Source: Ktedonobacterales bacterium
GTDB lineage: Bacteria; Chloroflexota; Ktedonobacteria; Ktedonobacterales; JADMIN01
Length of the DNA: 32,000 nt
Direction of reading: 5' to 3'
Assembly (NCBI GenBank): GCA_030167145.1
Contig: CP126532.1
Location: 4,980,001 to 5,012,000 of the forward strand
Shown here: positions 356 through 29,921 of the stretch, piece by piece
Layout of the letters: each line of letters begins with the position of its first letter
How positions within the stretch are numbered: position 1 is the stretch's first letter
The notes under the pieces: generated by a model
Databases searched by the model: none
What the model was told of the DNA's origin: nothing
What the model saw: the letters and a program-made list of their open reading frames with translations, nothing else
Position numbers and translations under genes: made by a program

Positions 356-1237
356 TCAAAGGCGCTTTTCGAACCAATGATGGGCGTAGGGCTCGGCGTT
401 AAAGGCCGCGACCTCTTCGTATCCGGCCCGCCGATAGAGCGCGATAGCCTCGGTGAGCGCACGATTGGTCTCCAGGCGCAGCACGCTGACCCCAGCCTCG
501 CGCGCAGCATGCTCCAATGCAGCGAGGAGGCGCTGTCCCAGCCCGAGGCCGCGCACCTGTGGCGCCACCCACATCCGCTTCAGCTCTGCCGGGGCATGCG
601 CGTGGAACTTCACGGCGCCACACCCCACCGGCGCCTCGCGCATGTGGGCCACGAGGAGGATCCCGGCGGGCGGCGTGAGTTCGTGCGGCTGGGCAGAGAT
701 GCTGCGGGCCGGATCCCACCCCGCGTCGAAGCGCTCGTTGAGTTCCGCGGCGTACTGCTCCAAGCACCACCGGGCATCCGCACTGGTCGGATCGCTGACG
801 GCGATGCGCACCAGCGAGGCCAGCAGCAGCCGTTCCACCTCCGCCATCGCCGCAGCCAGCCGGACCTGTTGGCGCACGCTCAGCGGCTCGAGCAGGGCCT
901 GGGCGAACGCGTCGGCGCGCTGATCCAACTCGGCACGCTCCGCCAGCCCCGCCGCAGTGAGCCGCACCCGCCGCACCCGCCGATCCTCCCGGCTCGCCTC
1001 GACCACCACCAAGCCCTGCCGCTGCAACGACCGCAGCAGGCGGCTGACATAGGCGGAATCGAGCGCCAGGCGGCCACGCACCTCGCGAATCTCGGCCCCC
1101 ACGCCCCCAATCTCCCAGAGCAGCCGCGCTTCGCCCAGCGCATGCGCACGGCCCAGGAAATGGTCATGCAACGCGCCGACCCGCTCGGTGACGGTGCGGT
1201 TGAAGCTGCGGACGCGCTCAACCAGGGTCCTCTCCAT
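356..1237 (-). CDS. MarR-type winged-HTH regulator fused to a C-terminal GNAT N-acetyltransferase domain
   Basis: 293-aa ORF. The N-terminal half (VRSFNRTVTERV...ARLLWEIG...SAYVSRLLRSLQRQGLV) looks like a MarR wHTH. The C-terminal half (LKRMWVAPQVRGLGLGQRLLAALE...AIALYRRAGY) carries GNAT motif A. A GGAGG SD (complement of 1245-1249) lies 7 nt upstream of the ATG at 1237. Confidence 0.85.
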   Translation of the reverse strand: MERTLVERVRSFNRTVTERVGALHDHFLGRAHALGEARLLWEIGGVGAEIREVRGRLALDSAYVSRLLRSLQRQGLVVVEASREDRRVRRVRLTAAGLAERAELDQRADAFAQALLEPLSVRQQVRLAAAMAEVERLLLASLVRIAVSDPTSADARWCLEQYAAELNERFDAGWDPARSISAQPHELTPPAGILLVAHMREAPVGCGAVKFHAHAPAELKRMWVAPQVRGLGLGQRLLAALEHAAREAGVSVLRLETNRALTEAIALYRRAGYEEVAAFNAEPYAHHWFEKRL

Positions 1238-2679: not shown

Positions 2680-5649
2680 GTGCATCATCTAGAGCGACAG
2701 GCTGCTAGAAAGTGCAGGCAAACCATGGCGATGCGGGAGTCGGCGGCAGACGGGCGGACGTCACGGCAAGTAAACGCGAGCAGCGATGGAATGAGCGACG
2801 CGAGCAGCCGTGGTCAGCAGGGCCAGTATACGGGTGTCGTGCTGATTCACGGCCTCGGTCCAATCCGGCGCAATGGCATGCTGGAGCAATCCCTGAACGC
2901 CCTGAGCTACTGGTTCAACCATACGGCCCAACTTGCCGTGCGCCCTGAGGGTCCAGGGCGTATCTGGCTCGCTCCTGAACTCACTGACGACCCTGATCCC
3001 GATCAGCCCGCCTCACGGGCAAGCGTCGAACTGGTCGCGCCTGACTCGCCCGATTCCCTGCCGAGCGGCGCTGCTGGCGTGCGGCTGGAGTTCCGCGAGG
3101 TGTGGTGGGCAGAGTCGTTTGGCCTGCCCGACATCGGCGCCACCATCGCCTGGGCGCGGCTTCAGTGGCGCGAGCAGGCCGCACACCTGCTGATTCCCAT
3201 CGGCAAGCTCGTCGGACCCTCGAAGACCGCCGCGCGCACGCCTGCACGCCAGACTCCCCAGGCGCTTACCTATCGCCCGGCACATGACACCACCGGACGC
3301 GACAGTCACGGCGCCACCAGAGCTGCCTCCCGATCCGCCACCGGAGCCGCGGCACAGCCTGCTCCCCCCAACCAAATGGGCCGGCCGATGCGTGCGGCGC
3401 TACGCACGCTGCTCTGGTTGTACGACCTCTACCAATACCTCTGGAAAGGCGTACAATGGCTGTTCCTCACACCCGTCATCACCCTGCTGTTGATCGTGAT
3501 GGGCATCGTGCGCGTGCTGGCGGTTCTGCCCTTCTTGCGCCCGGCGATCATCGCTACCTTCCAAGCAATCACCAACAACATCATGCTGCACTGGGTCTCC
3601 GAGATCAAGGTCTACCTGACCGACTACACCCGCGCCTCGGCCATCCGACAACGCTTCGCACGCGAAGTGGAAGAACTCCTGCGCGACCTACACTGTGACC
3701 GCGTCGTCGTGATCGCCGAGTCAGGGGGCACCTACATCGCCTATGAAGGGTTGACGACCCTCCTGGCGAAACCGGACCTGCCACTCGACGACCAGGGCCA
3801 GCCCAAGCCCGTAACCTTCGTCAGCATCGCCACCGCGCTGCGTCGCATCTGGCTGCTCGCCGCGGCCGATCCCCATCGGGTCCATGGCGTCCTGCCTCAA
3901 CATGTCAAATGGATGCACTTCTGGGCACGCTACGACCCAGTCGCAGCCGGTCCACTCACCACGGACTCGCTTCCCCCGATCACCACCTGGGACGATCCGA
4001 CCGACCCGAACCCCTATGATCGGATCCGCACTTCACTAGCGCACTGCGAGAACGTAGCCGTCGTCAACACCGACAGCACCTTCACTGACCACGTGAGCTA
4101 CTGGGATAACCTGGAGCAGGTCGTAGGGCCGATTGCGTATGAGTTGGTGGCAGGCCATCCCGCCTTGGAGCAGGTCGTGCAGGACCACCTCGCCTCGCGA
4201 GATGACGTACTGCTGCGCCGCTGGAGCGTGGCCTGGCGCTATACACTGGCCTTCGCAGCCAGCGTCGCCGCTGGACTCGGTCTCCTGGTATGGGCAGTTC
4301 AGCACCCAGCATTTGGCGACACCCTGACGAGCCTCTTGCGGCGCGTCGACTGGGGTGGCCTCGTCGGCTCCGTGTGCGCACCCTGCAAGGCAGTGGTCGG
4401 CAATCCTGGTCCACCACTGCCGCCAAACCCCACCGTCGAACAGTTCGGCTTTTACGCCCGCGCGCAAGCCGTAACCTATCTGTTCACACAGTACGTGACG
4501 ATCCAGGCTCTCGTTGTCGGAGCCATCGCCGTGGCGGTGATGGCATTGACGCATGTGCTGGTTGGGCGGCTGGCGGCGAAGCAGACCTTCGTTGCGTTTC
4601 CCGACTTCCATCCCCCTGCCATGCTGCGCCTGGGCGGGCTGTTTGCAACCTCCGCCATCGGGGTGGGACTGATATTTCTCGCGTCCCTCATTTTCAGCAG
4701 ATACGTGCATCAGCGCGTGAGTCTCGCAGCCCTTCCCAATGACCCGCTGGTGTTCGCCTACATCTGGGCACTGGGGCTCGGTGAGCTTATCTATACCGTA
4801 TCCTTTGTCGCGACGCTAGTCGTCACCTTCCAGCAGCGACAATGGGGTTGGCTCGTCGGCGTGCTTCTCAGCCTCACCCTCCTCACCACCTTCGACCCGT
4901 TCTATCGCACTGCCCTGCTCGCCGTCGCCGTGGTCGGCTGTCTCGTCTGCCTGACCCAATCGCCCCGACCCTCTGGCGCCAGCGGAAAGATCATCCTCGC
5001 AGCCCTGGCGCTCATGTCCGCCAATGCGGGCATTGGCGTGACGCTGGCCGATTTCAAGGTCCTGAGTACGCCGCTGCTCGGTGCGGGCGTCTTCGTGGAG
5101 TACCTCCTGCCCCCGCTGATCTACGCCCTCTGGTCAGGCAGGTTAGCCAGCGCACACGTCAGCGACCATCTGATCGGTGTCAGCATCTGGCGGCGCACGG
5201 TTCTCGGCCTGGCGCCAGTGTACCTGGGTCTCGCCACCCTGCTTGCGGTGCCATACATCATCAATCGGCAGCTCTACACCTGGCTGTACAGCCACACGCA
5301 GTTCAGCATCTTGTCATTGCACGACTTCCTGGGCGCCGGAGCATCGTCCACCCTCACCCTACGAGCGTTCGGAGTGACGCTCGCCGTGTTCCTTGGCGCC
5401 ACTATGCTGCTGCTCAGCATGGCCGATGCGCTGCGGCAGCGGCGGTGGGCCTGGCTGCTGGGCATTCCGCTCTTGTTCGCCGGGCTGGCCATCGGATTCG
5501 ATACGCTCGCGCAGTTGGGAGTCAAGTCCACCGTACCTGAGGCAGGCCTCGTGCTCTCGTTCGCGCTCGCTGCGGCGGCCCTGATGTATGCGCTCTGGGC
5601 CGGGCCGACGAAATGGCGAGGTGCGCCCAAACCCATCAAGCCCGTATAG
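2680..5649 (+). CDS. Large polytopic membrane protein with an N-terminal alpha/beta-hydrolase-like domain
   Basis: 989-aa ORF; the start is uncertain (GTG 2680, ATG 2725 or ATG 2791). It has VVLIHGLG (oxyanion HG), VVVIAESGGTYIAYEG (AxSxG nucleophile elbow, Ser codon 3721-3723), WARYDPVA and FTDHVSYW as candidate Asp/His, and more than 12 hydrophobic helices from about residue 520 to the C-terminus. Confidence 0.8.
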   Translation: MHHLERQAARKCRQTMAMRESAADGRTSRQVNASSDGMSDASSRGQQGQYTGVVLIHGLGPIRRNGMLEQSLNALSYWFNHTAQLAVRPEGPGRIWLAPELTDDPDPDQPASRASVELVAPDSPDSLPSGAAGVRLEFREVWWAESFGLPDIGATIAWARLQWREQAAHLLIPIGKLVGPSKTAARTPARQTPQALTYRPAHDTTGRDSHGATRAASRSATGAAAQPAPPNQMGRPMRAALRTLLWLYDLYQYLWKGVQWLFLTPVITLLLIVMGIVRVLAVLPFLRPAIIATFQAITNNIMLHWVSEIKVYLTDYTRASAIRQRFAREVEELLRDLHCDRVVVIAESGGTYIAYEGLTTLLAKPDLPLDDQGQPKPVTFVSIATALRRIWLLAAADPHRVHGVLPQHVKWMHFWARYDPVAAGPLTTDSLPPITTWDDPTDPNPYDRIRTSLAHCENVAVVNTDSTFTDHVSYWDNLEQVVGPIAYELVAGHPALEQVVQDHLASRDDVLLRRWSVAWRYTLAFAASVAAGLGLLVWAVQHPAFGDTLTSLLRRVDWGGLVGSVCAPCKAVVGNPGPPLPPNPTVEQFGFYARAQAVTYLFTQYVTIQALVVGAIAVAVMALTHVLVGRLAAKQTFVAFPDFHPPAMLRLGGLFATSAIGVGLIFLASLIFSRYVHQRVSLAALPNDPLVFAYIWALGLGELIYTVSFVATLVVTFQQRQWGWLVGVLLSLTLLTTFDPFYRTALLAVAVVGCLVCLTQSPRPSGASGKIILAALALMSANAGIGVTLADFKVLSTPLLGAGVFVEYLLPPLIYALWSGRLASAHVSDHLIGVSIWRRTVLGLAPVYLGLATLLAVPYIINRQLYTWLYSHTQFSILSLHDFLGAGASSTLTLRAFGVTLAVFLGATMLLLSMADALRQRRWAWLLGIPLLFAGLAIGFDTLAQLGVKSTVPEAGLVLSFALAAAALMYALWAGPTKWRGAPKPIKPV

Positions 5650-5992: not shown

Positions 5993-6655
5993 GTGGATCA
6001 ACACATTCTTGACGAACAACTGACCTACTACCGAAAGATGGCTCAGGAATACGACACAACCAATGGCCAAACCGACGATCTGCAACGGGCATTTGCACGA
6101 GCCAGCGAGCTCCTGCAGCAACTCGCACCAGTGGAGCAGATGCTCGAACTGGCCTGCGGAACGGGCATCTGGACGCGTACGCTGCTCCCACTTGGCCGTG
6201 CATTGACCGCGATCGACGCCTCTCCAGAGATGCTGGCCTTGGCTCGGCAGAATGTGGGTACGACCGTCCAGTTCGAGCAAGCGGACCTCTTCGCGTGGCA
6301 GCCGCGACAGCAGTACGACTTAGTCTTTTTCGCCAATTGGTTGTCGCATGTGCCTCCGCGACGGCTCAACGCCTTTCTTGATACCATCGCTGGTGCAGTC
6401 CGCCCCGGCGGTTCGGTTGTCATTGTGGACCAGTATGCTCCCATGCCAGAGGATCGCGAGATCAGCGTGCAGACGGAGGACGGGGCCATCTATGCCAAAC
6501 GCTCCTTACGCGACGGTCAAGCGTTCACCATCGTGAAAGTCTTCTACGACCTGCCGATCATCGCGAACCTCCTGGAGGCGCTGGACTTTACGGTCGCGGT
6601 CCATACGCTGGACGACGTCTTCTTCTTCCTCCACGCCCAGCGTCAAGCCACCTGA
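5993..6655 (+). CDS. Class I SAM-dependent methyltransferase
   Basis: 220-aa ORF. It has an N-terminal LDEQLTYYRKMAQEYD, motif I LELACGTGIWT, a post-I IDASPEML, and VFFANWLSHVP. Confidence 0.85.
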   Translation: MDQHILDEQLTYYRKMAQEYDTTNGQTDDLQRAFARASELLQQLAPVEQMLELACGTGIWTRTLLPLGRALTAIDASPEMLALARQNVGTTVQFEQADLFAWQPRQQYDLVFFANWLSHVPPRRLNAFLDTIAGAVRPGGSVVIVDQYAPMPEDREISVQTEDGAIYAKRSLRDGQAFTIVKVFYDLPIIANLLEALDFTVAVHTLDDVFFFLHAQRQAT

Positions 6656-6773
6656 GGCTGGAGATGCACGGTCACCGCTGCATGTCTATCACCACTGCAT
6701 GTATCGACCGTCTCACCAGCTCGTAGCCTGTACGCATAGCCTGAACTGTAGGTCTACCGGCCGCACAGGTCGA

Positions 6774-6851
6774 GCGCCATCTCCTGCGCCATCTCCTGCG
6801 CCATCTCCTGCGCGACCTCTGCCGCCGCCATCGCCGCCTTCTCCGCCTTCT
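6774..6851. repeat. 12-bp tandem repeat GCGCCATCTCCT x3 (plus a degenerate 4th), followed by the 9-bp repeat CCGCCTTCT x2
   Basis: Perfect 12-mers at 6774-6785, 6786-6797 and 6798-6809; CCGCCTTCT at 6834-6842 and 6843-6851. Confidence 0.92.
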
Positions 6852-7115
6852 CGTCGCTCTCCGCCGGGTCCGCAGGCCTCCTGCATCTGCCCCCTATCGT
6901 CGCGCATCGTCTCCCCCCTCTAGTCTCTTGTTGCTGTCATGCTGGTGCAAGGGGGAGCCATAAGGCTCCCCCCACCTCGCCCGAATTCCTCACCCTCGCG
7001 CACACGCGCAGCGCGCCAAACGTGATGCATTCTGACGTGTGCTCGCTTTTCAGTCGCACCCGACCCCGCTCATTTCCTTAGAGCAACTTGCGAGAAGCAA
7101 TGGCAGGCATGGGTT

Positions 7116-7506
7116 ATGCGGAGCTCCCAGGTATGCGGAGCTCCCAGGTATGCGGAGCTCCCAGGTATGCGGAGCTCCCAGGTATGCGGAGCTCCCAGGT
7201 ATGCGGAGCTCCCAGGTATGCGGAGCTCCCAGGTATGCGGAGCTCCCAGGTATGCGGAGCTCCCAGGTATGCGGAGCTCCCAGGTATGCGGAGCTCCCAG
7301 GTATGCGGAGCTCCCAGGTATGCGGAGCTCCCAGGTATGCGGAGCTCCCAGGTATGCGGAGCTCCCAGGTATGCGGAGCTCCCAGGTATGCGGAGCTCCC
7401 AGGTATGCGGAGCTCCCAGGTATGCGGAGCTCCCAGGTATGCGGAGCTCCCAGGTATGCGGAGCTCCCAGGTATGCGGAGCTCCCAGGTATGCGGAGCTC
7501 CCAGGT
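7116..7506. repeat. 17-bp tandem repeat ATGCGGAGCTCCCAGGT x23, all copies identical
   Basis: 391 bp equals 23 x 17 exactly, and I can see no mismatch. A 24th partial copy (ATGCG, 7507-7511) forms the first 5 nt of the transposase gene. Each unit contains the 8-bp palindrome GGAGCTCC and an ATG. There are no stop codons in any of the six frames. Confidence 0.98.
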
Positions 7507-8449
7507 ATGCGTGCCTATTCGACCGACCTGAAAGAACGCCTGGTGCGCGCGGTGGCAGCGGGTCAGCCCATGCGAGAAGCCGCGCGCCGCTTTGGAGTGG
7601 CCGTGAATACGGTGAAACGCGCCGTGGTGCAACAGCGCGAGACGGGTTCCCTGGAGCGCAAACCGATTTCCGGCTGCCCGCGCCGCATTGGCCCGGAGCA
7701 GGAAGCCAGTTTGCGCGCGCGGCTGGAAGCCGCGCCCGACGCGACGGTGCTGGAGCACTGTGCCTGGTGGGAGGAGCAGACCGGCCAGGTGTTGAGCGAG
7801 GCCACCATGTGGCGAGCCATGCGCCGTCTGGGCTGGACACATAAAAAAAGCAGTGGCAGCCAGCGAGCGCAACGAGGAGGCGCGGGCAGCTTGGTGCGCG
7901 GCGGTCGTCCGGTTCGACCCCCAGCAGTTCGTCTTTGTCGACGAGAGCAGTACCCACACCTCCTTGACCCACCTCTATGGGTGGGCGCCCCACGACCAGC
8001 GCGCCAGGGGAGCGGTCCCGCGCGAGCACCGCACGAACACGACCTTGGTGGCCGCGCTCACCCCCGACGGGCTGCACGAACCCTGGATGATTGAGGGGGC
8101 GATGAATAGCGAAACCTGCCACTGGTATATCCGGGAGCAGTTGGGGCCAACACTGCGACCCGGGCAGGTGGTGGTGCTGGATAATTTGAGCGTCCATAAG
8201 GCGGCCAGCATCCGGCAGGCGCTGGCCGCCCGTGGCTGCGACCTGCTCTTCTTGCCGCCCTACTCCCCCGACTTCACCCCTATCGAGCAAGCGTTCTCCA
8301 AACTCAAGGCGATCCTGCGCGGGCTGGGCGCTCGCACCCGCGCGGCGTTAGAGCAGGCGGTAGGAGTGGCGGTGGATGCGATCACCCCCCAGGATGCCTC
8401 CGCCTGGTTCGCTCATGCTGGCTACTCCCTCCCTGCTCCACCAACTTGA
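7507..8449 (+). CDS. IS630-family transposase, N-terminal HTH part and C-terminal DDE part in two frames joined at an A7 run (7843-7849)
   Basis: Frame 1 from ATG 7507 reads MRAYSTDLKERLVRAVAAGQPMREAARRFGVAVNTVKR...RLGWTHKK (HTH domains). Frame +1 from 7850 reads AVAASERNEEARAAW...FVFVDESS...VVVLDNLSVHK...PPYSPDFTPIEQAFSKLK up to the TGA at 8447-8449. Removing one A from CAT AAA AAA AGC fuses them in frame. Confidence 0.85.
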
Positions 8450-8658
8450 AAGTTGCTCTAATGCCAATATGTCGTCTGAAGTATGTCGTCCTGAAGTCCT
8501 TGCACTTCCGTCTGCATGGCGATGACTCCCCAAGTGTACCGGTGCAAGGCGACCTGGCGTGCTGGCGTGATATAGTTGCCTCAACTGGCAAGTTTTTCAA
8601 GAGTGGCGCACCAACTATCCCGAAGAATCCCGGCGATTCGAATCAAGTAGGAGCAAGT

Positions 8659-9963
8659 ATGACGGCTGCGGATGCAGTGCGGACAAGTGAGCGTGATGAA
8701 GCGCGTCGCTATGATGTTCTCGTCGTTGGCGGCGGACCCTCCGGGCTGGCAGCAGCCGAGGCCGCCGCCCTGGGTGGGGCACGTGTTGCGCTCCTGGAGC
8801 GACAGAAGGAAATCGGATACCCTATTCATACGAGCGGTGGCAGTTGGGTCAGCGACATGCGTGTACTCGGCATACCAAGCGACCTCTATCACCCTATCCG
8901 CTCGGTCACATTCCTCTCGCCACGCAAATCAGCGACCTTCGCCTACGATGATCCCGTCTGCTGTGTATTGGATGTTCGTGGCGTCTACCAGCATCTCGCC
9001 GGGCGCACTGTCAAGGCAGGCGCCGAACTGCACCCCAATTCTCCTGTGGAAGGGCCGATTCTCGAAGACGGGCGTGTCGTTGGTGTTGTCGCCAAAGATC
9101 ATCGCAACCGGCCAGGCGAATGGCGCGCGCCCGTCGTGATTGACGCCAGCGGCTTCTCCTGCACCCTTTCCACCCGTGCCAATCTGCACGCAGGCTATCG
9201 CCGCTATGGCTACGGCGCGGAATACGACCTGTACGCCCCAAACTACGACCCTGACAGCCTCTATCTCATCATGGGCAGCCAGGTTGCCCCGTCGGGCTAC
9301 GCCTGGGCATTTCCGCGCGGCAAGGGCCGTGTGCGCCTGGGCGTGGGCGTCATTCGCCCAGATGTTGACGCCGATGCGCGCGAATACCTCGACACCTTCA
9401 GCGAACGGCTGCCATCGCTCGCCCCAGCCTTCGCCGGAGCCAGTGCGGTGGAATACCATACCGGTCTCTTTCCATCCGAGGGCGTTGTCCCGCATTTCGT
9501 TGGCGAGGGACTCCTGGCGACCGGCGACGCGGCGGGCCACGGCTCCACCCTGGTAGGTGAAGGCATTCGCTTTGCCATCTACAGTGGCCAGATGGCCGGC
9601 GCAGTAGCCGCCGAGGCCACTCGCGCAGGTGACGCTTCGGCGCGATTCCTGGAACGCTATGAGCGCCAGTGGCGCGCGCGATTTGGGCGTGAGATGGACA
9701 TCTCCTACATGGTGAACCAGCGCATCGCCGCCTGGAGCGATACCCGCTGGGATGAAAGCATGGACCTCCTCAACCGCTTAACGCCCGCGCAGGCAGCCGA
9801 ATTGTTGCGCGGCGACTACAGTGTCGGCCTGTTCCTCGGTGTGCTACGTCGCAACCCGGGGCTGCTGCGCTCTGGCGCGCGCAAGTTCTTTGATGTCGCC
9901 TTCCAGCGGCTCGGCCGTCCCACACCCGTCACTGAAGCCGAGATCGCGACGAGCGGCGCCTAA
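8659..9963 (+). CDS. FAD-dependent oxidoreductase of the geranylgeranyl-reductase family
   Basis: The start is chosen at ATG 8659, with an AGGAG SD at 8648-8652. The N-terminal YDVLVVGGGPSGLAAAEAAALGGARVALLERQ is a Rossmann GxGxxG dinucleotide fold, followed by ...LLATGDAAGH...GEGIRFAIYSG, which is typical of this family. The upstream part of the tracked ORF (8446-8658) abuts and slightly overlaps the IS right end and does not look coding. Confidence 0.8.
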   Translation: MTAADAVRTSERDEARRYDVLVVGGGPSGLAAAEAAALGGARVALLERQKEIGYPIHTSGGSWVSDMRVLGIPSDLYHPIRSVTFLSPRKSATFAYDDPVCCVLDVRGVYQHLAGRTVKAGAELHPNSPVEGPILEDGRVVGVVAKDHRNRPGEWRAPVVIDASGFSCTLSTRANLHAGYRRYGYGAEYDLYAPNYDPDSLYLIMGSQVAPSGYAWAFPRGKGRVRLGVGVIRPDVDADAREYLDTFSERLPSLAPAFAGASAVEYHTGLFPSEGVVPHFVGEGLLATGDAAGHGSTLVGEGIRFAIYSGQMAGAVAAEATRAGDASARFLERYERQWRARFGREMDISYMVNQRIAAWSDTRWDESMDLLNRLTPAQAAELLRGDYSVGLFLGVLRRNPGLLRSGARKFFDVAFQRLGRPTPVTEAEIATSGA

Positions 9964-10016
9964 AACGCCACGGCTGGTGCTGCGCGATATCAGTCAGAGT
10001 TGTAGGGAGGATCCCG

Positions 10017-11498
10017 ATGCTTCCCGGTAACCAACAGCGGCGTGCGGTTACGCAGCAACGCTCGCTCGACTCCGACCTCGCTCGCGCGCTCGCGCACCCT
10101 GTCCGTATCGGCATCCTTCGCTCTCTGCTGGCCGCGCCCGCTGGCCTCACCCCTGCCGCGCTTGCGGAGTCCCTCCAAACCACCACACCCACGATCCACC
10201 GCCACTTGCGCGTTCTGCGAGACCTTGGCGCCGTCTCACCGCCTCCGTCTGGCGCTCGCACGGCTCCCGCACGGCGCGTCACCCTCGCCACGGGGACTCT
10301 CACACATACACTGGCTGCTATGCTCAGCGCTGCCGGAGATGCGCATTCGGCTCCGCCCGCGCTTTCGGCAATCGCTGTCTTTGCCCGTATCCCGCTCGAA
10401 TCCGTTCTTAATTACCTCGCCAGTGGCGTTGCCGTCTACAGTCCGTCCGGTGAGCTGCTGTACATGAATCCCGCCGGCGGACGCATCACGCACCAAAATA
10501 TCATACTTGGCGAGCATGTAGCCGAGCGGCAGCAGCGCTTCTCCTTGCGTTTGCCCGACGGCACGCCCATGCCGGAAGTAGAGTCGCCGTCTGGGCGTGC
10601 GCGGCGCGGCGAGACCTTTGCCGATGTGGAGTGCGTCATCACCGGTCAGCATGGCGAAGAAGCGTATCTGCTCACCAGTGGCGCACCATTGGTAGATTAC
10701 CAGGGCACGATTCAGGGCGCGATTGTCATCTTCTCTGACATCACCCGCATCAAAGCGCTTGATCGCCAGCGCGACGAGTTTTTGAGCATTGCCGCCCACG
10801 AGCTACGGACGCCGCTCACCAGCATCCTCGGCACCCTCCACGTCCTCAACAAGCAAGTAGATCGCATTTCTATCGAACATGAAGGCGAGCGTCTTGCTTT
10901 CGCCAGGGGATTCGCCCGCATCTCCCGGCAATCACAACGCATCAACAAACTTGTCGAGGACATCCTCGACATTACCCGCATCGCGTCAGGCCAGCTCGAA
11001 TTCACCTTCGCTCCACTCGATTTGGTCGCTGTTGCCCAGGAAGCGATAGACGGCCAGGCGCTTATCAACCCCAACCGCGCCATCGCACCATTGCTGCCCG
11101 CCTCCACAGTGGAAATGCGCGGCGATGCCGGCCGGCTAGGGCAAATGTTCGACAACCTCATCTCGAATGCGCTGAAGTACAGCAAGGAAAGTCAGCCGGT
11201 GGAGGTGCGGCTCGCCGTTCTAGGCAATACAGCGCATCTCACTGTCACCGATCACGGCCCTGGCATCCCATCCGAACACCTGGCTCATCTCGGCGAACGC
11301 TTCTTTCGCGTCCCCGGCATGACCGTGCGCTCTGGCTCTGGTTTGGGTCTGGGGCTGGGACTCTTCATCACCTATAACATTGTCGGACGGCACGGAGGCA
11401 AGATCTGGCCCGAATCCAAACCAGGAGTGGGCACAACCTTTCATGTGGAACTGCCGCTCAACATGAAAGCCGCCTCAGCCGCCACGACGGATTCGTAG
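10017..11498 (+). CDS. Cytoplasmic sensor histidine kinase with an N-terminal ArsR-type wHTH and a PAS domain
   Basis: 493 aa. It has LAHPVRIGILRSLL...LTPAALAESLQTTTPTIHRHLRVLRDLGAV (ArsR/SmtB-like) and GVAVYSPSGELLYMNPA...IVIFSDITRIKALD (PAS). The kinase motifs are the H-box LSIAAHELRTPLTSI (His codon 10797-10799), N-box DNLISNALKYS, G1 DHGPGIP and G2 GSGLGLGLGL. I saw no TM segment. A GGGAGGA SD precedes the ATG. Confidence 0.85.
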   Translation: MLPGNQQRRAVTQQRSLDSDLARALAHPVRIGILRSLLAAPAGLTPAALAESLQTTTPTIHRHLRVLRDLGAVSPPPSGARTAPARRVTLATGTLTHTLAAMLSAAGDAHSAPPALSAIAVFARIPLESVLNYLASGVAVYSPSGELLYMNPAGGRITHQNIILGEHVAERQQRFSLRLPDGTPMPEVESPSGRARRGETFADVECVITGQHGEEAYLLTSGAPLVDYQGTIQGAIVIFSDITRIKALDRQRDEFLSIAAHELRTPLTSILGTLHVLNKQVDRISIEHEGERLAFARGFARISRQSQRINKLVEDILDITRIASGQLEFTFAPLDLVAVAQEAIDGQALINPNRAIAPLLPASTVEMRGDAGRLGQMFDNLISNALKYSKESQPVEVRLAVLGNTAHLTVTDHGPGIPSEHLAHLGERFFRVPGMTVRSGSGLGLGLGLFITYNIVGRHGGKIWPESKPGVGTTFHVELPLNMKAASAATTDS

Positions 11499-28445: not shown

Positions 28446-28667
28446 TCTGCCACCACCGCAGCCGTGTAGCGCCGCCATCTCACCAGCTCGTGCCTACCTG
28501 CCCTCAGCTAATAGCCGTCTCTACTGCTCCCCGCTCCCAGTTCTCTTCTATCTTCGTGGCCCCAACTGACCGTATTCGACCGCACCACATCCCCGTATCC
28601 TCGTGCCACGCATGCTACACTATCCACAATTGCCTATCTTCCGGCGTAAGGAGCACGCCCCCCATGA

Positions 28668-29231
28668 AACATCGGCCACATCGGCCACAGGTAGGGCAGA
28701 CATTCTTGTCTGCCACAATGCGAAATTCTGCCACAACGCGAAATCGGCGGCATCGGCAACTCAAATGTTTGGCCACTTTGGCAACCCCGCTCGCTTCGGG
28801 GTTACACATGGCATTCATGCTGGGAACTCGCTTTACCACCCAGCCTACCCTTTTCGCCCAATCGGCCACTCCGGCCACTCCGGCCACTGCCACACATGTG
28901 AAATTGCGGCGAAAACGGCGAAAATTACTCCGCCATCTCCAGTCATGTCCCGTCATTCATCCCCACACCACCGCGAAAATCGGCCACATCGGCCACTACC
29001 CCTCCGCAAAATCGGCAGAATCGGCAACTCACCTTCGCGGCGAAAAGGGCGAAATCTATGCGCTGCATATTCGGCCACATCGGCCACTGCTCATCATGTG
29101 CGCGACACGAGACTGCGGCGAAAACGGCGAAAATTCTCCCTCCATCTCCACCCGTTTCCTGCCATTCGCCCCCACCCAAACGCAGGAATCGGCCACATCG
29201 GCCATTCCGGCCATTCCGGCCATTCATGGCC
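28668..29231. repeat. Composite non-coding repeat locus: 9-bp doublets/triplets (ATCGGCCAC-type) embedded in ~210-bp higher-order repeats
   Basis: ATCGGCCAC-ATCGGCCAC occurs at 28671, 28979, 29070 (first copy TTCGGCCAC) and 29188. TCCGGCCAC x2 is at 28870 and TCCGGCCAT x2 at 29206. An identical 22-mer TGCGGCGAAAACGGCGAAAATT occurs at 28905-28926 and 29114-29135 (209 bp apart). ATCGGC[GA]G[CA]ATCGGCAACTCA occurs at 28743 and 29011. Confidence 0.85.
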
Positions 29232-29244
29232 GAGATCGCTACCA

Positions 29245-29286
29245 CAAAAAGACGAGTCCACCACACGCTCTGCGGGCGGACTCGTC
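29245..29286 (-). terminator. Rho-independent terminator of the YtxH-like gene
   Basis: On the - strand GACGAGTCC-(18 nt)-GGACTCGTC is a 9-bp perfect stem (29251-29259 / 29278-29286) followed by TTTTTGTGG (complement of 29242-29250). It starts 26 nt after the stop at 29312. Confidence 0.6.
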
Positions 29287-29311
29287 CCTGGGAGGCAAAA
29301 TGTTTCAGCGC

Positions 29312-29716
29312 CTAGGCATTCGTCGAAGAACGCATCTGATCGGCGGCCCGGTCGGTCAACTGCTGCGCCTTGTCGGCAGTGGTATTTGTCGCCCGCTGTG
29401 CCTTCTCGGCGGCCGTATCCGCCGCCTGCTGAGTCTTGTCAGCGGCGCTGCTCGTTGTCTGGCGCGCCTTGCTCACCGCCGCATCGGTCGCTCGCTGCGC
29501 CTGGCTGATACCGCTATTCAGTGCCTTCCGGCCCGATTCAATAGCGTTCGAAACACTCGGCGGCAGGTTGTTCATTCGCTCCTGCGCCTTGCCCTGCCAC
29601 TCATTCAACCGCTCTTGCAGTTGCGCTCGTGTCACCTCGCCCCGCTGCGGAGCAAACAGCAAACCCAGCACCGCGCCAATCGCGGAACCCCATATGAAAG
29701 CACGAATCGTCTTCAT
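29312..29716 (-). CDS. YtxH-domain protein (general-stress-type, N-terminal anchor plus Ala/Gln/Thr-rich repeats)
   Basis: The start is chosen at MKTIRAF (ATG 29716) with an AGGAGG SD ~9 nt upstream, giving 134 aa. FIWGSAIGAVLGLLFAPQRGEVTR is the YtxH signature. The C-terminus has reiterated ADKTQQAADTAAEKAQRATNTTADKAQQLTDRAADQ. Confidence 0.8.
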   Translation of the reverse strand: MKTIRAFIWGSAIGAVLGLLFAPQRGEVTRAQLQERLNEWQGKAQERMNNLPPSVSNAIESGRKALNSGISQAQRATDAAVSKARQTTSSAADKTQQAADTAAEKAQRATNTTADKAQQLTDRAADQMRSSTNA

Positions 29717-29921
29717 CGCGTTGCCATCCTCCTGGACCTGTCTATGCACAACATCTTCAGCCAGACAAACGCCGGTGAACCATATGTTTCCCGGCGTATC
29801 CTATCGGAGCAATCTTCATGCCAGCGAAATCTATCGCCGCACGCTCTCCGCGCCGCAACATCTGACGCAACCGTGGCCGTATCCTTTCGTACTACGCTTC
29901 GGGGAAAGAGGAGGTTCTAGC

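Follow-up and report, generated by a model that had tools for sequence, protein, structure and literature searches.

We analysed a window of 32,000 nucleotides (the whole stretch of DNA considered here) from a Ktedonobacterales bacterium, GenBank assembly GCA_030167145.1, contig CP126532.1, positions 4,980,001 to 5,012,000 of the forward strand. An IS630-family insertion sequence (IS) in this window carries 23 perfect tandem copies of a 17-bp unit between its left end and the start codon of its transposase. Judged from the sequence and from related elements, the array is likely a recent, slippage-generated minisatellite derived from the translation-initiation region of the element itself, within a solitary and possibly crippled IS copy of a repeat-prone genome.

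According to an exact string test, positions 7116-7511 of the window consist of (ATGCGGAGCTCCCAGGT)x23 followed by ATGCG, with zero mismatches. Tandem Repeats Finder (TRF) calls the tract at 7115-7511, with a period of 17, 23.4 copies, 100% matches and a score of 794. A chance origin of the array is excluded, because 374 successive bases each repeat the base 17 positions before them. Counted from the element's first base, the G at 7081 that follows the TA at 7079-7080, the array begins after 35 nt. Its right edge is the transposase ATG at 7507, the conserved start (MRAYSTDLKERL) in all relatives. These results bear out the initial annotation of the window, which had described 23 perfect 17-bp units that begin 35 bp into an IS630-family element and end on an ATG.

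Each unit is characterised by a GGAG, a 9-nt spacer and an ATG. The Shine-Dalgarno (SD) candidate is this GGAG, 9 nt upstream, instead of the AGG 1 nt before the ATG to which attention had first been drawn. The self-complementary octamer GGAGCTCC occurs 23 times in the window, every time within the array. The periodic sequence holds no TAA, TAG or TGA on either strand, so all six frames of the array are open. Seven upstream ATGs (7150, 7201, 7252, 7303, 7354, 7405 and 7456) are in the frame of the first transposase open reading frame (ORF1), which is open from 7039, and the remaining two frames of the array stop at 7531 and 7844. The initial annotation was correct on all these points: the octamer in every unit, the lack of stops in six frames, the seven in-frame ATGs and the two ends of the upstream open reading frames (uORFs).

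To place the array in its family we used protein-guided scans, which gave 80 loci from species-representative genomes (almost all metagenome-assembled genomes, MAGs, of Ktedonobacterales) and 80 loci from Joint Genome Institute (JGI) metagenomes. The relatives were checked by TRF and by the distance from the element end to the ATG, and 114 had both landmarks. About 45 related elements are full-length, with 76-81% DNA identity, and all are about 1,010 bp long. In the 114 relatives the flanking TA is 52-60 nt from the ATG, most often 54 nt (76 of them). A leader array is absent from all 114 relatives, which come from Ktedonobacterales genomes and metagenomes, so that the array-bearing element is the only such one of 115 copies. 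A comparison of repeat number among copies of this IS had been proposed from the sequence alone, together with the statement that no IS630 member with such a leader was known; the relatives are all single-unit and none is expanded, which agrees with that statement. The recent expansion proposed at the same time is in line with the perfect identity of the units and with the single-unit state of the 114 relatives.

When 22 units are removed, the window leader is exactly 54 nt long. One unit is ancestral, and 22 units (374 bp) are extra. Compared with the leader of a relative from Ktedonobacterales SMAG_U1423 (L031), the collapsed leader differs at one base, GGAGCTCC vs GGAGATCC. Because the collapsed leader is 54 nt long and matches L031 at all but one base, the unit is, according to the alignment, the last 17 nt of the element's native leader and not foreign. 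It would then be a copy of the translation-initiation region, and a GGAG 9 nt before the ATG is a sensible SD spacing. Conservation within the leader is lowest where the octamer lies (-13 to -6), and a palindrome at this position is found in none of 60 distinct 54-nt leaders of relatives. The palindrome is for these two reasons a one-base accident of this copy, not a family feature.

Searches for a second instance of the array were negative. The array translated on both strands matched, among 5.8e9 proteins, only two gene calls, both on this locus, and a DNA scan of JGI metagenomes for the left junction, with either GGAGCTCC or GGAGATCC allowed, gave 0 matches. Exact-protein look-ups with the methyltransferase, P0122 and a right-hand gene gave no empty-site or left-flank contigs. 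In the literature searched, nothing directly relevant was found on tandem repeats in Ktedonobacteria or in IS630 leaders.

The 17-nt segment is flanked by TATGCG on both sides, in the window as well as in the single-unit leader of L031, and at the same two boundaries the family consensus has GGGT(T)ATGC as an imperfect direct repeat. The presence of TATGCG at both boundaries makes the segment a substrate for slippage duplication. The ancestral 54-nt leader would have contained this 6-nt direct repeat at -18 and -1 relative to the ATG, and misalignment between the two copies could have duplicated the intervening 17 nt. More slippage or unequal exchange would have extended the tract to 23 copies, in a host genome that may be unusually prone to such events. 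Any effects on translation would be a by-product of the expansion, not the work of a selected regulator. The amplification of the native initiation region between existing TATGCG repeats had not been recognised in the initial annotation, and neither had the frameshift window that is one base off (see below).

The imperfect direct repeat is conserved in the leader of this IS family at about -21 and -4 (L002-L162; window 7111-7121 and 7503-7513). There is also a conserved (A/G/C)TGC at -17, which often opens a 13-codon uORF. This uORF overlaps the transposase start and ends at a TGA 24 nt downstream.

The host genome contains many similar arrays. With a period of at least 7 and a TRF score of at least 50, there are 11 perfect arrays in the 32 kb of this window (34 per 100 kb), 20 in 399 kb of related Ktedonobacterales loci (5.0 per 100 kb), and none in 66 kb of loci from other phyla or in 50 kb of Escherichia coli K-12. 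The sample is small and the density patchy, as the 9.6 kb left of the window hold none. The 10 further perfect arrays of the window are short and have no visible role. All perfect arrays with at least 3 copies end on a whole copy or a few bases into the next (about 0.3 of a unit), which is what short direct repeats at the flanks would be expected to produce. In unrelated Ktedonobacterales MAGs of other projects, perfect arrays reach 12.7 copies. Replication or repair may be unusual in this lineage, given its array density, and the abundance of perfect arrays across the lineage is a lead worth following.

Seven of the arrays of the window, six perfect and one at 91%, are crowded together at 1254-2403. 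Their periods are 8, 13, 11, 13, 11, 13 and 10, mostly not multiples of 3, and they have 2.1-6.3 copies. On its left the cluster is bordered by a GNAT/MarR gene (356-1237, minus strand) and on its right by a 989-aa ORF (2680-5649). In the roughly 1.4 kb that separate these two, JGI calls two short genes only, of 86 and 130 aa, the latter with a DUF6504 match. A contig of the independent Logan assembly (L165) reproduces the first four arrays of the cluster exactly and breaks inside the fifth. The 989-aa ORF and a second long ORF (28490-29920, 476 aa) have no Pfam match at E <= 1e-5. The 476-aa ORF contains arrays with a 9-bp period, a multiple of 3, at 28863-28888 and 29199-29225.

Expansion driven by the palindrome, through hairpins in single-stranded DNA, was considered as well. 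Two palindromic units form a hairpin of -9.6 kcal/mol, and the DNA folding total for four units is -19.2 kcal/mol for the palindromic unit vs -5.8 kcal/mol for the L031-type unit. This route is unsupported, as hairpin energy and copy number are uncorrelated over 31 perfect arrays (Spearman 0.05, p = 0.77).

The array sits within a TA-flanked element of the IS630 family (Tc1/mariner superfamily) at 7081-8458, Table 1. Minus the extra units, it would be an IS630-family insertion sequence of roughly 1,004 bp. The second transposase frame (ORF2) matches PF13358 with E = 4.8e-30 (104.8 bits, cut-off 28.6). The Pfam matches of ORF1 are weak, with the helix-turn-helix (HTH) families HTH_32, HTH_28 and HTH_Tnp_IS630 just below their cut-offs (33.0 vs 33.7 for HTH_32). 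Taken together, ORF1 and ORF2 are 74-78% identical over 99% of their length to full-length transposase homologues. These homologues bear precomputed HTH Pfam domains, and some lower matches are named IS630-family by their source. The 198-aa product of ORF2 has an exact match in JGI and Logan records, and the homologues are mostly called in databases as a separate ORF2 of 198-213 aa. Among the top 120 homologues the 5.07-Mb contig contributes this ORF2 only, so the element looks solitary at this identity level.

The two frames meet at a run of A. In 50 related sites this run is A7 in 32 and A8 in 18, and it is usually followed by 13 nt (A7) or 12 nt (A8) before a GCAGCC-type sequence. This family pattern places ORF2 in the -1 frame behind an A_AAA_AAG motif. 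The site in the window (7843-7862) is A7 with 12 nt, i.e. 1 nt short of the family pattern, and this off-pattern state is shared with L004 and L038. In the window copy a -1 shift leads into a dead frame; fusion of the two ORFs needs a +1 or -2 shift, or one A lost from the mRNA. Frameshifting or transcriptional realignment is known in the IS630 family, including a Chloroflexi example (PMC5009743). As in those two-ORF elements, an HTH ORF and a DDE ORF are joined at an A-run, whereas the window copy is 1 nt shorter after the run and its -1 shift is dead. Due to its solitary state at this identity level and the frameshift window 1 nt off the family pattern, this IS copy may be crippled and already non-functional.

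The array is probably a member of the class of bacterial minisatellites, or variable-number tandem repeats. Its copies are perfect, uninterrupted and head-to-tail, the partial last copy matches the flanking direct repeat, the equivalent site in relatives is single-copy, and other tracts are found nearby. It differs from the usual members in that it lies within an autonomous IS, is made of the ribosome-binding region and start codon of that IS, and is known here from one assembly. The nearest precedent in a mobile element is BrickBuilt, a MITE (miniature inverted-repeat transposable element) of Porphyromonas gingivalis, in which a 23-nt minisatellite without spacers lies between a 'leader' and a 'tail' whose ends are small inverted repeats (PMC4596501). 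Both are bacterial mobile elements with an internal minisatellite. However, BrickBuilt is non-autonomous, is present 19 times in strain ATCC 33277 and has a repeat that is constant across the family (PMC4596501), whereas the window element encodes its own transposase and the repeat is found in 1 of 115 copies. As a slippage product the array is of little importance for its own sake. It illustrates clearly, from nature, how a translation-initiation region can be amplified in place and how host replication errors can disable or destabilise an IS copy.

Four points weigh against a slippage product in a crippled element, or against certainty about its length. The 23-unit count and the perfect identity come from one long-read metagenome assembly. 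The 17-bp tract is an outlier: in about 470 kb of the lineage it exceeds the next largest perfect array in length by a factor of 3.4. Both transposase ORFs are otherwise intact, and the element is not obviously dead. Finally, the GGAG, the AUG and the palindrome of the unit give a clean predicted odd/even alternation in SD exposure, which would also suit a selected switch.

To describe what the array would do to expression, we folded the leader RNA. With a transcription start at or upstream of the left end, the leader would be 428 nt long instead of 54 nt. The array leader folds to -259 kcal/mol (z = -5.9 vs shuffles), and the single-unit leader has less structure than its shuffles. The predicted fold is a chain of hairpins in which adjacent units pair via GGAGCUCC and two more pairs, which include the UG of the AUG. 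The hairpins between neighbouring units that had been proposed from the octamer are in this way recovered by RNA folding. Rfam covariance models gave no match at E <= 1 across 6600-8700.

Opening the authentic SD-AUG region is predicted to cost 10.0 kcal/mol with a single unit, about 11.3 with an odd number of units and about 18.4 with an even number, and with a non-palindromic unit this alternation is absent. The authentic GGAG has a predicted unpaired probability of 0.37 with 23 units and 0.00 with 22 or 24, and for the decoy GGAGs the value is at most 0.03. From these opening energies and unpaired probabilities an odd/even switch is predicted rather than a graded throttle by copy number of the kind that the initial annotation had suggested. 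With 23 units the authentic site is predicted to be almost as accessible as it was in the ancestor. The mRNA would gain 23 decoy GGAG-AUG sites over all three frames. Translation from the decoy starts would either overrun the true start (ending at 7844), stop 24 nt past it (7531) or add an N-terminal extension with a 17-residue period. On balance, transposase output would probably be lowered or become erratic.

The strongest competing explanation is that the array is a selected, slippage-driven switch or throttle on transposase translation, i.e. a contingency locus, acting in a graded manner or by odd/even parity. The position of the tract in the 5' leader, abutting the start codon, the folding of the leader RNA far beyond its shuffles, and the alternation of opening energy and GGAG exposure with unit parity all agree with such a role. 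There are also precedents for its parts. In nontypeable Haemophilus influenzae, hmw1A and hmw2A have 9-28 copies of a 7-bp repeat upstream, and the repeat number is inversely correlated with the transcript level (PMC2424069). As a long tract upstream of a coding region, this is the nearest model for a copy-number throttle; however, the hmw tract is kept across strains and its variability and effect have been measured (PMC2424069), while the relatives of the window element have no tract. In ISPpu9 the transposase is regulated by a structure in the 5' untranslated region that sequesters the ribosome-binding site (PMC8450116). The leader of the window element is likewise predicted to pair with the ribosome-binding site and so to limit transposase translation. 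In ISPpu9, however, the structure is fixed and dedicated small RNAs go with it (PMC8450116), whereas here the pairing partner is the duplicated ribosome-binding site itself and the predicted effect at 23 units is small.

Against selection, the tract is not kept across related elements (0 of 114), no second instance was found by protein or DNA search, and the palindrome that such a switch needs is unique to this copy. Many similar arrays were made elsewhere in the host genome, and a solitary element with an off-pattern frameshift site leaves selection little to act on. In addition, no sigma-70-like promoter was found in 6650-8700; by eye, a weak TTGCGA-18 nt-GGTTAT straddles the left edge of the array. 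We consider a selected switch or throttle unlikely, and the functional throttle or titration array that had been suggested for this locus is not supported, given an array unique to one copy and a palindrome found in 0 of 60 leaders.

The more specific version, a parity-coded translational switch, is very doubtful. According to the folding model, the units would pair two by two, so that an even number locks the authentic SD and an odd number frees it alone. If true, slippage by one unit would toggle transposase synthesis with the reading frame untouched, a previously undescribed form of phase variation. The predicted odd/even masking of the SD is simple in design and a lead worth following.

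We also considered that the length or the uniformity of the tract is an artefact of long-read assembly or of short-read polishing. The window is identical to the JGI contig Ga0494333_323 of 3300045419 (5,069,600 bp), near 4.98 Mb. The NCBI version, a Ktedonobacterales MAG with locus tags OJF49_, is the same contig and also has 23 units, and an NCBI gene call on the reverse strand covers the entire array and agrees with the window. The 23 units are thus evidenced by one assembly, as JGI and NCBI hold the same contig. An independent k-mer assembly from Logan (SRR22113990) agrees with the window at every base of 7704-11449 and 1-1647 and does not cover 7116-7703; a k-mer assembly is unable to span arrays longer than its k-mer. 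For the 397-bp tract, the flanks are reproduced independently and the tract itself comes from the single assembly only. On the other hand, the Logan contig over 1-1647 contains four neighbouring perfect arrays base for base and stops only inside a 69-bp array that exceeds the k-mer. Since the independent assembly reproduces these four, short perfect arrays are real in the reads. The perfect arrays in unrelated MAGs from other projects also speak against an artefact, and both junctions of the tract are clean and make biological sense, with the conserved ATG and, on either side, the TATGCG microhomology. An artefact is, overall, quite improbable.

The Logan contig over the right half of the IS (L001) begins at 7704, inside ORF1 and not at the edge of the array. 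Low coverage could explain this start, and so could a branch from related IS copies present in the community.

A protein-binding array, in which the transposase or a dimeric host factor occupies the GGAGCTCC palindromes for titration or in a nucleoprotein complex, would make use of 23 identical 8-bp palindromes at a fixed 17-bp spacing. In B-DNA, however, this spacing sets successive sites on different faces of the helix, which counts against such an array. The binding or titration role that had been put forward also finds no support in the comparison: the unit shows no relation to GAGCAACTTGCGAG, the terminal inverted repeat, nothing similar is found at the right end, and the array is in this respect unlike the transposase-binding repeats of inverted repeat/direct repeat-type elements (Sleeping Beauty, Tc3). 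The palindrome is absent from every relative, so the family transposase cannot depend on it, and the octamer is nowhere else in the 32 kb. Such a function is extremely unlikely.

It is scarcely credible that the array is a coding repeat for a 17-residue periodic N-terminal extension of the transposase. Such an extension could draw on seven ATGs in frame and on an ORF1 frame without a stop from 7039 onwards, but 17 is not a multiple of 3, none of the six frames is closed, the peptide is confined among the 5.8e9 proteins to gene calls on this locus, and the relatives start at MRAYSTD with upstream sequence that is not conserved as coding. A CRISPR (clustered regularly interspaced short palindromic repeats) array was rejected, as the units are contiguous, with no spacers between them, and unique spacers are absent.

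The features of the element are given in Table 1. The arms of the inverted repeat I1 extend over 7078-7094 and 8445-8461 and are 88% complementary.

Table 1. The IS630-family element and its array. Columns: feature, position in the window, strand, and the evidence for the assignment.
Feature	Position	Strand	Evidence
Left TA target-site duplication	7079..7080	.	Read from sequence; TA directly 5' of GAGCAACTT in relatives too
Left terminal inverted repeat GAGCAACTTGCGAG	7081..7094	+	Inverted repeat I1; core GAGCAACTT in the same place in relatives
Unique 35-nt part of the leader	7081..7115	+	Base-for-base alignment with the L031 leader and the family consensus
Tandem array	7116..7506	+	23 perfect ATGCGGAGCTCCCAGGT copies; TRF, exact string test, single-unit state in 114 relatives
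Transposase ORF1, N-terminal helix-turn-helix part	7507..7851	+	Frame open to 8094; weak Pfam HTH matches
A7 slippery run, ORF1/ORF2 junction	7843..7849	+	Three-frame translation; comparison with 50 related sites
Transposase ORF2, DDE_3 catalytic domain	7853..8449	+	PF13358; stop codon within the right inverted repeat
Right terminal inverted repeat	8445..8458	-	Inverted-repeat arms
Right TA target-site duplication	8459..8460	.	Read from sequence

A second, distantly related IS630-family element ends just inside the start of the window (window 1 to about 30; L164 11190-12395). It consists of a 172-aa HTH ORF and a 174-aa DDE_3 ORF with an A6G run between them, and this element, 6 kb away, has an ordinary leader and no array. 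The array-bearing IS is located 195 nt upstream of a gene for a geranylgeranyl-reductase-like FAD oxidoreductase (8656-9963), in the same orientation. Two minor repeats are found close to the element, a 14-nt tandem repeat of 2.1 copies at 8468-8497, which begins 8 nt past the right TA, and 12-nt repeats at 6774-6838, about 240 nt before the left TA.

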